Shown: positions 35,381 to 42,013 of the stretch, piece after piece
How the letters are laid out: each line of letters opens with the position of its first letter
Numbering within the stretch: the stretch's first letter is position 1
IMG/VR virus record: IMGVR_UViG_651053023_000003
Span: 1 to 45,038 of that record
Source of the DNA: a virus
Lineage: Duplodnaviria > Heunggongvirae > Uroviricota > Caudoviricetes
Length of the DNA stretch: 45,038 nucleotides
Direction: 5' to 3' (one strand)
Made by a program: the position numbers and the translations under genes
The notes under the pieces: generated by a model
What the model saw: only the letters and a program-made list of their open reading frames with translations
Databases searched by the model: none
What the model was told of the DNA's origin: nothing

Positions 35381-36847
35381 ATGGCTACTTGGCAAGGATC
35401 AAATGGCGGATTATTGGCTGGTATCGGCGGCGTCAACTCAAACGCTCCGAACGTAAATGACATCGGCAATACGCTTCAGTTTATCAGGCAGAACAATGAT
35501 ATTGAGCGTTCAGGCGCTAACAATGTTGGGCTGACTGCTTTGCAAGGCCTTTCAGGTATTGCGGGGGTGTTTCAGCAGGAAAAGCAGGCTCAGCGGCAGA
35601 AAGAATTTCAGCAGGCATACGCTAATGCTTATGCGTCTGGTGATCGCGGTGCTTTGCGTCAGTTGGCTACTCAATATCCAGACCAGATTGAATCCGTTCG
35701 TAAAGGCATGGGATTCATTGATGAAGACCAACGCAATTCTATCGGCACCTTAGCGGCTGGCGCACGCCTTGCGGCCTCGTCTCCAGAAGCAATGCAATCA
35801 TGGCTGCAAAACAACGCCAATGAGCTGGCGCGCGTCGGTGTTGACCCTAATAACGTTGCTCAGATGTATCAGCAGAATCCTTCAGGATTTGGTGAGTTTG
35901 TTGATCACCTTGGGATGGCTGCTCTCGGTCCGATTGACTACTTCAATGTTCAGGACAAGATGGCTGGTCGTGAGATTGACCGAGGCAGGCTGGCAGAGAC
36001 AATCCGCAGCAATCAGGCCGGAGAAGCACTTCAGGCGAGAGGGCAGGATATTAGCCGAGCAAATGCGTTAACGTCAGCATATGCACCAACAGCCGCAATG
36101 CAGAATTACAATCAGTACGCGCAAATGTTAAAGGCAGATCCAGATGGTGCAGCGGCATTTGCGGCAGCGGCGGGAATTAATCCCAATGCTAAGAAATTAC
36201 TTAAGGTTGAAACCAATCCTGATGGATCGGTAACTAAGTATTACACCGATGGCAGCGAGGAAGCCGGAAAACTAAACCAACCTATATCTGGTGATGGCAT
36301 TAAACCAATTAGCTTGCCACAAGCGCAAAGCATCATAGATAAGGCTAATGAGGGTTCCAAGAAGGCGGCAGGATTTGCTTTGCGATTAAAAGATTCAATG
36401 GACTCAATGAATCAGCTTAGTAAAAGCATTGACCCTAAGCGAGTTGCATTAATAAATCGCTCTCTTGGTGATGGGACTATTGCAAATTTAAGCCTATCAC
36501 CAGCGGAGCAGCAATATATGGTAAATGCGAGAGACGCCTTGTATGCAATTTTGCGCCCAGAAACAGGTGCAGCAATTACTCTGCCAGAGATGCAGGAGTA
36601 TTCCAAAATGTACCTGCCTCAGCCCGGTGATTCCAAGGCTGCTACTGAAACAAAAATGCGAAAAATGCAGGGCCAATATAACTCATTACGTGGTCAGTCT
36701 GGTCGCGTTTATGATGCTTTGGTGGTTTCAAGTGCTGCAAATAGTCAACAACAGAGCAATAGCCAACAACCGACAAATACCCAACAGCAGCAGAGTCAAT
36801 CCGGATCATATACCTCAAAATCAGGCATTCAATTTACGGTGGAATGA
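35381..36847 (+). CDS. Ejection protein (P22 gp20-like)
   Basis: 488 aa, conserved order. Confidence 0.65.
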
Positions 36848-38970
36848 TGAAAGTAACTGCAAACGGTAAGACATTTACCTTCCCTGATGGTACGAGCACG
36901 GAAGATATTGGCACCGCCATTGATGAGTATTTTGCTGGTCAGGCTGTTCAGCAACAAACAGTTAATCAGGCCAATAATGCACCAACACGGGAAGAACCAT
37001 CATTAATGCAACAAGCTGGCGATTGGCTCACTGGTGGTCAAAGTGCAGGGCAAATTGCAGAACAGGCTGGTCGTGGTCTGGTAAACATACCATTTGACGT
37101 ATTGCAGGGTGGCGCAAGTCTGATTAATGCAATCAGTCAGGGGCTTGGTGGGCCAAAAGTATTGGATGATGTCTATCGTCCAGTCGATCGACCGACAGAC
37201 CCTTATGCGCAAGCTGGAGAAACAATTGGCGGGTATCTCCTGCCAATTGGCACAGCGGCAAAAGTTGCTGGAGCGCCAGCAAAGCTCGCAGGAGACATCG
37301 GTTCCGCAGGAAACATGATTGCAGGTTCTCTTGCTGATGCTGCAAATCAGGAGGGTGATTTTGCACAAAATGCTGCCATTAACGGTGGTATCAATATTGG
37401 TGCTCAAGGCGTTCTTTCAGGTGTCGGGCGCGTTATTGCGCCAAGGGTTTCACAGGCTCTTGGTGGTGCAGCACTGAATTCTGCTAATGAAGTTTCTAGG
37501 ATGGCAAAGTCAGGTGCTGGGCGTCAGTCAATTGCCAGTCAGGCCGCTAATGTGTCCGAAGATGTAGCAAAAGCGGCTGAGTCTGCTGGAATTGATATAA
37601 ACGCATTAACACCAGGAATGCGATCTGGAAGTCGTGGAATTGCACAAGCCGAAGGCGCATTGGCATCAACACCTGGAATTGTTCAGGACGCCCATCAGGC
37701 AGCATTTAACGAAATATCATCAAAGTTAAGTCGAAACCTTGATGAATTTGGGGCCACATCTGGAACGGCATCAGAAAAAAGTGCGGCTATAAAACAAAGG
37801 ATTCTTCAAAATCTTGATCAGATGAAGGATGCCGAGCGCGCGGCATGGGATGACGTGCGGTCAACAATGCCAAATCAAAAAGCAAGAATGCTAAATGGTA
37901 ATGCCGTTATTCAGGCAGAGCGATCTGCTGGCATACCGCTTACTCCTGAAATGAAACAGTTTGTTCAGGCAAACAATCAAGGTGGAGTAACATTTGATGG
38001 CATGAAAGCATGGAGAGCGAAATTTGCTGATGCGGAGCAAAAATATAAGCGTAGCGGAGAGGCAAATGCGGCAAGGAGAGCAGGGGAAATACGCCGGGCA
38101 ATTACTGATGATATGCGCACAATGGCGGAAAACGGCGGATTTCTTGATGACTGGCAGAAAGCTAATGATCTGTCTAAAGCGAGGTTATCAGCACAAGAGA
38201 GTGCAGAGTCTGTTTTCGGGCGTGATTTGGCAACAGATGCACTGATTACGAATGGAGTAAAATCCCTTCAATCATCGTCAGCTAAAGGTCTTAATGGTCC
38301 TGCTGGATTCCATTCTATGATCCGCGCGCTGCCAGAATCAGAGCGTGTTCCTGCTATATCATCAATGTTGCAAGATGCTATCTCGCATGGTGTACGTGGT
38401 GGCAAAGCTGATGCAGCAGGAATTAACCATATCGCAGAGATACTGACTCCACAAAATGTAAAAGCCATTAGCCGATATTCCTCAGAGCTTGGAAGAATTG
38501 CTGATGCATATGGCACTCTTGCAAGAGCAGCAGTGAAACCTCAGCAGTATATTGAAAGAACAGGTAGAACTGCCAATGTACTACGCGATCTGGATGCTGG
38601 TTTATCCAACGTCACATCAACAGTGTTAAATGCAATTGCCAATTCAACATCAGGTGCCATTGTTGGTGGCGCTGGAGGAGGCATTGCAGGCGCTGCCGCA
38701 GGTGCTTTAGTTGGCGCTGGGTTAAAAGGCGCTGTATCTAAAATTGCCACCACACGTAGTGGTCGGTATGCGATAGAGAAAGCGGTTCAGGAAGCAACTA
38801 AAGCAGTAAGAGCAGGCGGAAGCAAAGAAGCATTAGCGGCGGCGGAACGCAGATTTATGGCAAATAAGGCCGCCGTAAAAGCAATACGCGAGGCACTAGG
38901 AAACGAAGAGTTCCAGCGTTTAGCAAGGGCTGGAATTGTGGCATCGCTAAGCGGAATGGCACAGGAGTAA
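36844..38970 (+). CDS. Ejection protein (P22 gp16-like)
   Basis: 708 aa, alanine/glycine-rich, conserved order. Confidence 0.65.
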
Positions 38971-39300
38971 TTAGTCATCCATGGATGGATTGAGCTTATC
39001 TCGTGTTGATGTGGCAATTTTACCAACATTTTTCAACCAAGATTTTAAGAAGGATATGTCGTCCTTAATATCATGAATATCCTCATTCTTTATACGATCA
39101 ACCTTATCCTCTAGGCTCTCTATAGAACGCTCAATGCTAGACAGAGAGATTTTTAAGTCTCCTTGCTCACGTTCCAGTGAGGATTTGAGAGCACAATATT
39201 CGTTTTCTAGAATTCCTATTTTTTTTGTTAGAGAGTGCATTCGATACTCATACACCAAACTAGAAACGACTAATGCAGCCAACAGAAACCATTCAAGCAC
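38971..39300 (-). CDS. Hypothetical membrane-anchored coiled-coil protein (accessory gene)
   Basis: 109 aa from a GTG start with AAGGAGG Shine-Dalgarno; N-terminal transmembrane segment LEWFLLAALVVSSLVY; convergent with the gp16-like gene; AT-rich. Confidence 0.55.
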   Translation of the reverse strand: MLEWFLLAALVVSSLVYEYRMHSLTKKIGILENEYCALKSSLEREQGDLKISLSSIERSIESLEDKVDRIKNEDIHDIKDDISFLKSWLKNVGKIATSTRDKLNPSMDD

Positions 39301-39668
39301 ACCAACCTCCTTAGTTTTGCGCAGGATACCAGATGATACTTTATTGGTGGAGTGGTGTGTGAAAACGTGTCAACGACAAACCATCCACAACTTGGGCGAA
39401 TGATTTAGCAAAAAGTGCTATTTTTGGTGTTTGGTGTCATAGAAAAGTGAATAGCTCACTTTTCAACATTGCATGAAACTTGCAGGAAATGTGACATTAC
39501 CTTATAGGTAACTTCGGCGAAAATGCAGTAAATGTGAAATGTAATGATTTAAACGTGTCGATAAAGTGGTTGTAAGTTAGCCTCTGAAGGATTGATGACA
39601 GCTTTGTTATGGTATTAAATGCAACTTGACACAGTTGTATACATAGCTGCGGCTATCAAGATGGAGGT

Positions 39669-40118
39669 ATGTTTATGCTCACTTGTTTTGATGTCGCCGA
39701 CTACTTCTTGGCGCATTGCGATGAAGAAAGTGGCGACATTATCTCTAACCTAAAAATTCAGAAGTTGACGTATTATGCCCAAGGGTTTTCTCTGGTTCTT
39801 CTGGGTAAGCCGCTATTTAATGAGAAAATTGAAGCCTGGATGCATGGGCCAGTAGTTCCTGAATTGTATCGTAAATATAGGGACTGTGGTAACGGAGCTT
39901 TACCTGCGCCAGAAAACTTTGACGCTAAAAAATTCAGTGAAGATGAAATTGAATTGCTGGATGAGGTGTATAAAGTTTATGGTCAGTTTTCTGCCTGGAA
40001 ACTGCGCAATATGACTCACGAAGAGCAGCCATGGAAAGATGCTTACATTGAGGGTGCGGTTAGCCAAGAAATCACACTTGATTCTATGAAAGGTTTTTTC
40101 AAAACGTTAATTAACTGA
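39669..40118 (+). CDS. Panacea-domain (DUF4065, GepA/SocA-like) protein; candidate PanA-type antitoxin
   Basis: 149 aa; motifs ...KIQKLTYYAQGFSLVLLGKPLFNEKIEAWMHGPVVPELY... typical of DUF4065 from memory; GGAGG Shine-Dalgarno. Confidence 0.6.
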   Translation: MFMLTCFDVADYFLAHCDEESGDIISNLKIQKLTYYAQGFSLVLLGKPLFNEKIEAWMHGPVVPELYRKYRDCGNGALPAPENFDAKKFSEDEIELLDEVYKVYGQFSAWKLRNMTHEEQPWKDAYIEGAVSQEITLDSMKGFFKTLIN

Positions 40119-40123
40119 CGTGT

Positions 40124-40546
40124 ATGTCTAGAGTTAAGGGAAGAATAAAACAGAGGGATAAAGAGAGCTCTGCTACTGTTGGCCTCTCTATCCATCACGA
40201 ATCTCATGATGTAGACAAAAGTCCGCCTGTATTTTCTCTTAGATACCTACAAAAGGGGTATTGCCTAGATTGCTGCCAAAAGCATGAAAAGGCAGCATTT
40301 GCAGATAGGCTGTTCAGGTTAAGTCGGATGTCATGGGATGAGATACGAAAATCTGATAAACACGGGCTTGGGACGGAAAAAATTGCCAGAAACGCGATAA
40401 AAGCTCCGATTCCTAAGCATGTTACTCAAGATGTGGATTTCATTGCGTTCAGATTTTGCTCTAAGGCACCTATGGTTGGTTATAAGATAGGAGCCACTTT
40501 TTATGTCTTATGGCTCGACAGGGAGTTCAAGCTATACAAGCACTAA
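40124..40546 (+). CDS. Hypothetical protein, candidate toxin partner of the Panacea-domain protein
   Basis: 140-aa ORF starting 5 nt after the upstream stop; basic; C-terminus ...GATFYVLWLDREFKLYKH faintly RelE/ParE-like; followed by a terminator. Confidence 0.45.
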   Translation: MSRVKGRIKQRDKESSATVGLSIHHESHDVDKSPPVFSLRYLQKGYCLDCCQKHEKAAFADRLFRLSRMSWDEIRKSDKHGLGTEKIARNAIKAPIPKHVTQDVDFIAFRFCSKAPMVGYKIGATFYVLWLDREFKLYKH

Positions 40547-40548
40547 TA

Positions 40549-40576
40549 AAACCCACCGTCAGGTGGGTTTTTTTGT
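40549..40576 (+). terminator. Rho-independent terminator after the two-gene module
   Basis: AAACCCACC-GTCA-GGTGGGTTT stem-loop followed by TTTTTT. Confidence 0.8.
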
Positions 40577-40590
40577 TGGAGATAAAATGG

Positions 40591-40794
40591 TTAACCAAAT
40601 CGATCCTTAAAGCGTCTATCGCTGTTGCGTCTCTCCATTTTACTGTTGCAGTACGGACAAAGATGCTGTTTCTTTCCATCGATAGTCCATGTGAAGTACT
40701 TTTTCTTAAATCCAGCACCACAGATATCGCAACTTCTTGGTTTAAACATACTGGCTATGAAGATAAGAACAACAAATCCTATGATCCATTCCAT
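40591..40794 (-). CDS. Small membrane-anchored zinc-ribbon protein
   Basis: 67 aa; N-terminal transmembrane segment MEWIIGFVVLIFIASMF then CDICG...(16 aa)...CPYCN. Confidence 0.45.
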   Translation of the reverse strand: MEWIIGFVVLIFIASMFKPRSCDICGAGFKKKYFTWTIDGKKQHLCPYCNSKMERRNSDRRFKDRFG

Positions 40795-40935
40795 ATCATG
40801 TACCTGTTTTAACTTTATTTTTTGATTTTTAGGGATTAATCAGAAACTTTATCTTGCGATTAAGCAAAGCTACTAGCTAACAAAAGAGTGCGTATACAAT
40901 CAATCGTTTCACATCAACCTCAACAAGGAGAAATC

Positions 40936-41121
40936 ATGACCATAGAAGAACGCCTGAACAACATTGAGTTGAACCAAACCCTGCTTGACCAGCGACTTTC
41001 AGATCTTGAGCTTAAAGATCTGGATGCGCAAATATCAGAAGCAGAAGCCAAGCTCTCCAGCTTAAACCACCGCAAGAAGCAAATCCGCAACAGAATTACT
41101 CAGGGACGCGGAAGCCGTTGA
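40936..41121 (+). CDS. Hypothetical small coiled-coil protein
   Basis: 61-aa ORF from the ATG at 40936 with perfect AAGGAG Shine-Dalgarno. Confidence 0.45.
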   Translation: MTIEERLNNIELNQTLLDQRLSDLELKDLDAQISEAEAKLSSLNHRKKQIRNRITQGRGSR

Positions 41122-41130
41122 AATCATAGT

Positions 41131-41448
41131 CTATTTTTTCTCAGAGCTCATATTGTAATAGGTGGTATAAATAGAGATTGATTTCTGACATGCTTCAAGA
41201 AATTGCTGCGGAGTCATCCCGAGCCTTGCTTGCTCTGTAGTAAGGAATCTCTGTAAGAATTCATTCCCACCTGGCATGTTTGTAGATTCTTGGAATATTG
41301 CCATTTGTTTGATTGCACCACACATACCAGCCATTTTAGAAGCTATCATGAGGCCTTGTATTTCATCAAAACTGCTATCGTCTGATTTTGTTTCTGCGTT
41401 AGCTATGCTCGAGAGACACAGGAGCAATAGGATAGCGATACGTTTCAT
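41131..41448 (-). CDS. Hypothetical secreted/periplasmic protein co-transcribed with mnt
   Basis: 105 aa with Sec signal peptide MKRIAILLLLCLSSIANA; start overlaps the mnt stop (ATGA). Confidence 0.5.
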   Translation of the reverse strand: MKRIAILLLLCLSSIANAETKSDDSSFDEIQGLMIASKMAGMCGAIKQMAIFQESTNMPGGNEFLQRFLTTEQARLGMTPQQFLEACQKSISIYTTYYNMSSEKK

Positions 41449-41696
41449 TTTTCACCATTGCCATGCATACATTTTAACTTCTCAACATCATGCTCAAGCT
41501 CTATCAGTCGCGATGCTATAGTTGCAAGATCTAGTGCTTGAATGTGTTTGTTTTTTTCGGTCCATGCTTCAAGTGCTGCGACCATCTCAGCATTTAATGA
41601 ACGAGAATTAGCCTCAGCCAGTTCAATAAGACGTTCCTTTATCTCTACAGGAAGCCTCAGATTCACTTGAGGGTTTTTGTACTTACGATCAGACAT
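41445..41696 (-). CDS. mnt: Mnt-like ribbon-helix-helix repressor
   Basis: 83 aa (same length as P22 Mnt); N-terminal RHH-like NLRLPVEIKERLIELAEANSRSLNAEMVAAL; divergent from arc/ant. Confidence 0.7.
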   Translation of the reverse strand: MSDRKYKNPQVNLRLPVEIKERLIELAEANSRSLNAEMVAALEAWTEKNKHIQALDLATIASRLIELEHDVEKLKCMHGNGEK

Positions 41697-41800
41697 CGGC
41701 GCATCCTGAATAATTTTTTACCACAGGATATGTAGGTATCTATTGACTATCAATGCGTACCTAAATACTATGTATGCGTACCACATACAAAGGAGCAAAA

Positions 41801-41947
41801 ATGAAAGTTAAGACATTAAGGATGCCAGAATGGCTGGAAAAGGCTTTGGAGCAGTCCGCGAAAAAGGATGATCGGTCGTTCAGTAATGAGGTATTGAGGA
41901 GACTAAAGGAGTCAGTAGCTAAGGATGGAATTGTTTGTCCAGAATGA
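41801..41947 (+). CDS. arc: Arc-like ribbon-helix-helix repressor (below the ORF-track cutoff)
   Basis: 48-aa ORF read from sequence: MKVKTLRMPEWLEKALEQSAKKDDRSFSNEVLRRLKESVAKDGIVCPE; AAGGAG Shine-Dalgarno; immediately upstream of ant. Confidence 0.65.
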   Translation: MKVKTLRMPEWLEKALEQSAKKDDRSFSNEVLRRLKESVAKDGIVCPE

Positions 41948-42013
41948 GTAAAGCCCAAGCTATTGCGAGTAGCTCGGGCTTAAATCGCCAGTAAATTTTG
42001 AGGAAAAACTGAC

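Follow-up and report, generated by a model that had tools for sequence, protein, structure and literature searches.

Small inner-membrane accessory proteins that block the entry of DNA, such as gp15 of HK97 and Imm of T4, are found in different phage groups, and they lack a long coiled coil. A system close to the gene treated here is sieA of phage P22, whose product is a protein of 162-164 amino acids (aa) with three predicted transmembrane (TM) helices (four in types B and C) and the motif FxRYPxEAxxFNK (PMC10883804). It was reported that a single copy of P22 sieA with 85 bp of upstream DNA is sufficient for exclusion, that the gene is weakly transcribed in lysogens and upregulated during prophage induction, and that the mutations by which phages escape SieA lie towards the C-termini of gp16 and gp20 (PMC10883804, where HK97 gp15 is also cited). 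The gene under study, hkcB, was first annotated in phage HK620, and the genome paper of epsilon34 treats gene 14 of that phage as one of unknown function that has hkcB as a homologue 'in a similar position' (PMC2629481). The copy examined here lies in the IMG/VR virus record IMGVR_UViG_651053023_000003, the whole of which (45,038 nucleotides) is called the window. It shares with P22 sieA the slot, the orientation, a 34-nt leader, the ribosome-binding site (RBS) and the GTG start, and both products are small membrane proteins encoded by prophage accessory genes.

The open reading frame (ORF) of hkcB in the window runs opposite to the structural operon and has 109 codons, a GTG start and a strong AAGGAGG 5 nt upstream of it; an earlier note made from the letters of the window had described these features, and the coordinates bear them out (Table 1). 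There is hardly any doubt that the ORF is hkcB of a P22-like (Lederbergvirus) E. coli prophage, a gene already known. Its product is 97-98% identical in amino-acid sequence to HkcB of HK620 (NP_112088) and about 50-55% identical to gp14 of the Salmonella phage epsilon34, HkcB of the E. coli K1 phage CUS-3 and the SEN22 homologue. It matches PHROG 5962 (function unknown) end to end, with E=5e-61 over residues 2-109 of the 109-position profile, and its label in RefSeq is 'hypothetical protein' (WP_000895336.1). The features that mark the family, namely the PHROG 5962 profile, a C-terminal motif combined with an N-terminal anchor, and abutment on gene 16, are all present in the window. The genes of HK620, epsilon34 and CUS-3 agree with the window copy in length, in the GTG start and RBS, and in meeting gene 16 stop to stop. 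The window copy has S14 where most copies have G14 and otherwise shows no material difference; the upstream module is of the Emek/E212 type in the window, whereas that of HK620 is of the hkcC type.

The homology search that the earlier note had proposed as a check led in this way to a defined family, and no homology to a known virion or housekeeping protein, which that note had set against its own proposal, was found in the family and profile searches. A profile search of 1.84 billion representative proteins returned about seven true relatives, none of them linked to a named family, and HkcB is confined to P22-like phages. A scan of GTDB using the family alignment gave no match, and the genomic context of the most distant relatives, P0030 and P0032, was not found in IMG/VR or GTDB genomes. 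When HkcB was compared, in a search for mimicry, with the remaining products of this prophage and with its ejection proteins in particular, nothing was found below E ~0.08.

When six phages were aligned 5' of the start, they proved to share without variation a block of about 34-38 nt, (CAT[C])TGGTATCCTG...AAAACTAAGGAGGTTGGTGTG, with differing sequences on either side of it. According to the P22 records, sieA starts at the same leader, and the 34 nt before the GTG of hkcB also precede P22 sieA. The leader was followed through IMG/VR by an exact-pattern scan, which gave at least 120 stretches and at least 104 distinct contexts; the counts per cassette type given below are those among the contexts listed, and the types were grouped by N-terminal sequence, with only one pair formally compared. 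In the P22-like phages, the GTG of the leader opens at least 13 types of small ORF without evident similarity to one another, and at least 12 of these have a hydrophobic N-terminal or membrane-spanning segment, the exception being a soluble protein of 140 aa (sol140). Upstream of the leader, at least eight different modules occur in many combinations. The module upstream of hkcB in the window has 99.3% identity to that of EC.P3 and E212 and about 84% to that of Emek and phiv205-1, beginning exactly at the hkcB GTG, and modules of this type precede three different cassettes in E212, Emek and phiv205-1.

The other end of the slot is marked by the sequence CCATCC(A/G)TGG. In six other cassette families it comes right after the stop codon, in sol140 it lies 6 nt downstream of the stop, and in both HkcB types it belongs to the 3' end of the coding sequence itself. 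With one mismatch at most, it was found in 51 of the 102 contexts listed, against a background of 0.4% per 60-nt window. The stretch analysed here has both ends, that is, the GTG-ended leader GGTATCCTGNNNAAAACTAAGGAGGTTGGTGTG and the right-hand motif. The sieA slot is, with very high confidence, a two-ended exchangeable cassette bounded by the 34-nt leader and by CCATCC(A/G)TGG; no description of the shared leader or of such a cassette was found in the openly readable literature, subscription literature being outside reach. On its opposite strand, the leader carries the AGGA...ATG start that is used by hkcC in HK620 and P22.

The cassettes found behind the leader include the two types of HkcB (at least 13 and at least 7 contexts) and a 164-aa protein with FGRYPGEAKGFNK, which is P22 SieA (at least 10). 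The remainder comprise a 129-aa signal-peptide protein, annotated in Emek as similar to Sf6 gp38 (at least 16 contexts); proteins of 75 and 62 aa with two hydrophobic segments each (at least 10 and 9); a second 109-aa TM/coiled-coil protein (at least 10); membrane proteins of 106, 116 and 149 aa (at least 8, 3 and 6); signal-peptide proteins of 99 and 68 aa, the latter YobH-like (at least 4 and 2); and sol140 (at least 6). The second 109-aa protein was considered as a relative of HkcB and is not demonstrably related to it (hhalign probability 32%). Within E. coli, HkcB is the commonest occupant of the slot other than SieA.

The earlier note had argued that exclusion genes are found at this place in P22-type phages and had proposed an exclusion or injection-blocking factor. 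The first part stands, as hkcB has the position and leader of P22 sieA and converges with gene 16 in the same manner; homology between the two proteins does not follow. HkcB was considered as a member of the SieA family and rejected, there being no sequence similarity, no SieA motif, one hydrophobic segment only (residues 2-19) and no SieA among the relatives retrieved. What the earlier note had observed is confirmed, and its interpretation is partly supported.

The convergence with the ejection-protein operon, also described earlier, was found to be exact. Gene 16 and hkcB meet with zero intergenic bases (TAA of the one followed by TTA, the reversed stop of the other), as compared with a distance of 22 nt from the stop of sieA, and the ORF before gene 16 sits at the position of gene 20. 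The stops abut with an offset of 0 in 58 of the 62 hkcB loci; three of the others have no long convergent ORF within reach and one is a truncated copy 19 nt away. Other cassettes of the slot end between -4 and +57 nt from gene 16. It was also observed that hkcB occurs only beside a gp16 with a C-terminus of the HK620/epsilon34 type, and sieA beside the P22-type ending. The HK620/epsilon34-type ending is not exclusive to hkcB: it also adjoins the 149-aa and 140-aa cassettes, and it is found without hkcB in the E. coli phages Huey, Dewey, Louie and CurroJimenez and in Sodalis phage phiSG1.

The gene was found in 116 of 5426 complete E. coli genomes (about 2%) and in 63 IMG/VR viral contigs, and the same GTG and RBS are present in 62 IMG/VR loci. 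Two main sequence types were distinguished, MLEW... (HK620 and the window) and MYTT... (epsilon34 and CUS-3), which are about 50% identical and have equal length, an identical GTG and an identical RBS. The reading frame is intact across 107-109 codons in at least 60 loci of the two types. Between the types, pN/pS is 0.45-0.64 overall, with saturated synonymous sites (pS 0.53-0.83); by region, it is 0.55-0.89 for codons 2-65 and 0.20-0.35 for codons 66-109. The ORF is a real protein-coding gene, in which purifying selection acts strongly on the last 44 codons. At the RNA level, no Rfam family was found over hkcB and the fold is not unusual (z = -1.57). An identical intact copy was seen in a prophage remnant of E. 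coli ET245 (locus L190, NZ_CP100978.1 1420679-1433008), from which IS1 has removed everything from ninX to the last 550 bp of gene 16, and which keeps the region from hkcB to the tailspike gene as well as the integrase gene.

An N-terminal TM helix and a charged coiled coil had been noticed before in HkcB, and the present analysis agrees. On the Kyte-Doolittle scale, residues 2-16 average 2.13, and the remainder of the protein after the anchor is highly charged, with 16 K+R and 20 D+E counted in HkcB. AlphaFold models HkcB as a single continuous helix from residue 2 to 103 (mean pLDDT 88.5). The hydrophobic periodicity is 3.5-3.6 residues with its peak at 3.6, and at 3.5 the observed power is reached by 81 of 5000 shuffles. 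Core positions in which I/V alternate with L faintly suggest a parallel dimer. Most invariant columns of the alignment are C-terminal (W88, N91, V92, G93, I95-T99, R100 and K102 are invariant), and the conserved tip reads ..EDIH....DI..LK.WL.NVG.IATSTRDKLNPS, with the motif W..NVG.IATSTRDK.N; W..NVG is kept even in P0030 and P0032. The helix of about 85 residues would place this tip roughly 12 nm from the membrane.

In two metagenomic proteins, P0022 and P0023, an unrelated non-hydrophobic N-terminus of 62-67 residues continues in frame into the final 44 residues of HkcB, as if recombination recurrently joined sequences near codon 65. As the similarity of the window gene to the DNA of epsilon34 and CUS-3 likewise ends about 120 nt into the gene, hkcB is itself a mosaic with a junction near that codon. 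With respect to topology, six members of the family have no K/R before the hydrophobic segment and two to three K/R after it. By the positive-inside rule, this arrangement would leave the N-terminus outside and the C-terminus inside (N-out/C-in), with the helix in the cytoplasm.

A candidate weak sigma-70 promoter was read next to the leader on its upstream side. Its counterpart, at the same position relative to the leader, is the putative PsieA of the P22 record BK000583 (TTGGTA-19-TTTCAT). A promoter for hkcB at or near the leader may be proposed on this basis, with some uncertainty. Downstream, a terminator scan found no intrinsic terminator until 1.2 kb into gene 16, and a transcript of hkcB, which is oriented against the late operon, would then be terminated by Rho or run antisense to gene 16. 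A different arrangement is seen at loci L040 (4723-6009) and L063 (3846-5143), where hkcB, without the leader, closes a compact leftward array mnt-orf121-orf111-hkcB; such arrays occur in some epsilon34-like prophages, downstream of the maintenance-repressor gene mnt, and orf121 has CxxC...CxxC motifs while orf111 encodes a C-terminally anchored coiled-coil protein. Because of the leader shared with sieA, the position in the mnt array and the copy kept in the IS1-truncated remnant, low-level expression of hkcB in the lysogen is plausible.

The region upstream of hkcB (39301-39668) had also been described in the earlier note as AT-rich, with palindromes marking a regulated accessory gene. Its GC content of about 0.39, as against 0.46-0.50 in the structural genes, agrees with the first statement and is not distinctive, since the accessory region 39000-42000 is equally AT-rich. 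The second statement did not hold up. The quoted palindrome CAACTTGACACAGTTG has 5-bp arms, lies 31 nt before the Panacea-domain gene on the other strand and about 320 nt from the start of hkcB, and was not reported by an inverted-repeat scan as standing above chance; it gives no evidence of hkcB regulation.

Judged from its genomic context, HkcB may tentatively be regarded, at somewhat less than an even chance, as a lysogen-expressed, inner-membrane-anchored coiled-coil accessory protein that acts against incoming phage. According to this proposal, hkcB would be transcribed leftward at a low level in the lysogen from a weak promoter at or just upstream of the leader or, in some relatives, from Pmnt as the last gene of the mnt operon. 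The protein would insert in the inner membrane with its helix in the cytoplasm and oligomerize through the coiled coil, and the conserved tip would bind a partner, by which the lysogen would be protected against incoming phage. The likeliest route would be to disturb either the delivery of DNA or the gp7/gp20/gp16 conduit at the inner membrane, in a manner analogous and not homologous to that of SieA. In favour of an action on incoming phage count the slot shared with sieA and the linkage to gene 16 of the injection machinery. That HkcB blocks the ejection-protein conduit specifically is doubtful. It is a still more speculative thought that it represents a second injection blocker, unrelated to SieA, that works from the inner membrane by way of a long coiled-coil stalk and whose tip recognizes the conduit of phages with the HK620/epsilon34-type gp16, in a slot that holds at least 12 apparently unrelated, mostly membrane anti-phage proteins.

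Several observations weigh against an action on incoming phage. The occupants of the slot include secreted, multi-TM and one soluble protein without evident mutual similarity, so that, with 11 other ORF types present, occupancy does not specify an exclusion function. Scans of Pfam, NCBIfam, PDB sequences and PADLOC with HkcB gave generic coiled-coil noise and no family match, and literature searches on hkcB, its accessions and HK620 exclusion returned no functional data for the gene. Two copies were found in 3 of the 116 E. coli genomes that carry hkcB, from which it follows that strong self-exclusion is not obligatory. A standard consensus scan found no qualifying minus-strand promoter upstream of hkcB; the candidate TTCACA-19-TATCAT was missed because the spacers of the scan were limited to 16-18 nt. 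Furthermore, the putative PsieA of P22 lies in an upstream module that is absent from the window. The linkage of hkcB to the 3' end of gene 16 may be purely physical, since there is no spacer for recombination between them, although it is notable that mutants escaping SieA are altered towards that same end of gp16, and likewise in gp20 (PMC10883804). If the helix does lie in the cytoplasm, it is less obvious that HkcB could touch a periplasmic conduit directly.

HkcB was also compared with other known proteins. Like the Rz-type i-spanins, it has an N-terminal TM anchor with about 100 residues of coiled coil behind it, and its spanin-like profile matches are weak (PHROG 739, E=0.077; P2 Rz1/LysC, E=0.052). 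As an Rz-type i-spanin it was rejected, the locus (between gene 16 and immI, opposite to the late operon) being wrong and no lipobox ORF being found within or adjacent to the gene; moreover, the N-in/C-out anchor of an i-spanin leads one to expect a positive N-terminus, which HkcB lacks, its charges favouring the opposite orientation. A match to DpdH (PADLOC PDLC02886), a small protein encoded in the dpd cluster for 7-deazaguanine modification of DNA, over residues 2-69 scored 18.4 bits, and 21.9 bits for a relative of 67% identity. This assignment was rejected too: the match is limited to the LEW type, with none in the YTT type, P0030 or P0032, there are no dpd genes nearby, and the TM/coil region that it covers is one where composition can yield such scores. 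By analogy, HkcB may act in the way of SieA, HK97 gp15 or T4 Imm; to the last two, the resemblance appears to be one of kind only, the sequences being unrelated and the phage groups different.

The same gene can be explained in other ways, the most credible of which, itself unlikely, is that HkcB is a lysogenic-conversion factor that modulates the host envelope or division to the benefit of host fitness and is unrelated to phage defence. The slot and the mnt operon carry mixed small envelope proteins, including the YobH-like secreted one, one signal-peptide family appears in either place, and the second 109-aa TM/coiled-coil cassette weakly matches DivIC (E=0.0037). YhcB/ZapG and FtsB are small bitopic host proteins of the envelope and division, and an anchor with a cytoplasmic coiled coil resembles host scaffolding proteins of this kind. 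HkcB, however, has no sequence match to any host family and is restricted to its phage group, and the sole characterized occupant of the slot is anti-phage. HkcB has neither a pore-forming nor an enzymatic domain and possesses a single short TM segment, which makes it improbable that it is an abortive-infection or toxic membrane effector that senses infection and collapses the membrane or blocks a late step. What speaks for such an effector is the membrane-anchored oligomerizing helix, which adjoins a probable Panacea-domain toxin-antitoxin (TA) pair, together with the weak DpdH match of the LEW type; the absence of that match from the other sequence type and the distant relatives, and the location of the TA pair in a mosaic module of its own, assorting independently of hkcB, speak against it.

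A role in the lytic cycle, for example sparing the induced cell or its debris the wasteful re-adsorption of progeny and their injection, or modulating the phage's own ejection proteins or the timing of lysis, has a low probability. It would accord with the upregulation of sieA on induction (PMC10883804), and since hkcB and gene 16 meet stop to stop, their transcripts overlap in antisense and expression could couple to late transcription; the spanin-like matches in PHROG and NCBIfam, which are trivial, point the same way. It is opposed by the orientation of hkcB against the late operon, its location outside the lysis cassette, the fact that no embedded or adjacent o-spanin-type ORF was seen, and its retention in a prophage remnant stripped of structural genes. 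By far the least probable explanation is that the ORF is not a functional protein at all and only accompanies a sequence conserved on other grounds, for example as a linker for recombination or for antisense control of gene 16. The boundary motif does fall within the last hkcB codons, and with no terminator 3' of the gene any transcript would run antisense into gene 16, but a pN/pS well under 1 with synonymous saturation, a frame kept in two types so far diverged, the conserved strong RBS, and the unremarkable RNA fold without an Rfam match all contradict it.

Several features next to hkcB are also of note. The SocA/Panacea-domain gene is followed 5 nt later by a gene for a 140-aa partner and then by a strong hairpin terminator; the two genes are probably a PanA-type toxin-antitoxin or defence pair, which moves in a single module together with the 368 bp that precede hkcB. 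Inside hkcB lies the region's best sigma-70-like match, directed toward the Panacea-domain gene; it could drive the rightward accessory genes, give rise to an antisense RNA or be due to chance. Further on, a gene for a 105-aa signal-peptide protein overlaps the stop of mnt and is apparently co-transcribed with it. This protein is 43% identical (E=9e-28) to the 99-aa sieA-slot cassette of other phages, which means that the same accessory genes move between the mnt operon and the sieA slot. A sub-threshold match to the Rfam family of sar antisense RNA between arc and ant has the position expected for a P22-type immI region.

Table 1 Coordinates of hkcB, its signals and the neighbouring features in the window
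Feature	Position	Strand	Basis
488-aa ORF before gene 16	35381-36847		
Gene 16 homologue, 708 aa, ejection/DNA-transfer protein	36844-38970	+	PHROG 770 'DNA transfer protein', E=1.5e-232
hkcB coding sequence, 109 codons + stop (GTG 39300-39298, TAA 38973-38971)	38971-39300	-	ORF call, HK620 HkcB identity, PHROG 5962
Conserved C-terminal module, residues 66-109, ..DRIKNEDIHDIKDDISFLKSWLKNVGKIATSTRDKLNPSMDD	38974-39105	-	Invariant columns, pN/pS
Right-hand boundary motif CCATCCATGG (minus-strand reading), within the P-S-M-D codons of hkcB	38979-38988	-	
Amphipathic coiled-coil-prone helix, residues 21-103	38992-39240	-	AlphaFold, hydrophobic periodicity
Sigma-70-like match TTGAGA-17-TAGAAT inside hkcB	39185-39213	+	10/12
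Hydrophobic N-terminal segment LEWFLLAALVVSSLVYEY, residues 2-19, predicted single membrane anchor	39244-39297	-	Hydropathy
Leader CATCTGGTATCCTGCGCAAAACTAAGGAGGTTGGTGTG with extended -10-like TGGTATCCT (39331-39323), RBS AAGGAGG (39312-39306) and GTG	39298-39335	-	Six-phage alignment
Candidate weak sigma-70 promoter, TTCACA (39363-39358), 19-nt spacer, TATCAT (39338-39333)	39333-39363	-	Read from sequence
Upstream mosaic module (shared as one unit with the Panacea-domain gene pair)	39336-39668	.	Shared with EC.P3, E212, Emek, phiv205-1
SocA/Panacea-domain protein	39669-40118	+	Pfam PF13274, E=2e-24
140-aa partner of the Panacea-domain protein	40124-40546	+	PHROG 8366; weak PADLOC NsnC and NCBIfam MAG6450 matches
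Strong hairpin terminator	40548-40571		
67-aa protein, N-terminal hydrophobic segment and CxxC...CxxC zinc-ribbon-like part	40591-40794	-	
77-aa (or 61-aa) coiled-coil ORF	40888-41121	+	PHROG 7586
105-aa signal-peptide protein	41131-41448	-	
mnt	41445-41696		
sar match between arc and ant	41947-42013	-	Rfam, 29.3 bits vs gathering 43, E=0.0076

Only one third of the sequenced P22-like phages carry sieA (PMC10883804). SieA is the only characterized gene at the slot, and hkcB and at least 11 other families use the same leader and start codon, by which the 'variable region' becomes a definite list of genes that may act in exclusion or defence. The shared leader makes the exclusion hypothesis specific and cheaply testable, with about a dozen sibling candidates, among which HkcB, as the commonest non-SieA occupant in E. 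coli and tied to one type of gp16 C-terminus, is the obvious first one. If HkcB does not exclude incoming phage, the slot would carry lysogenic-conversion functions of other kinds; if it does, its comparison with SieA would help to show where the gp7/gp20/gp16 conduit is vulnerable at the inner membrane.

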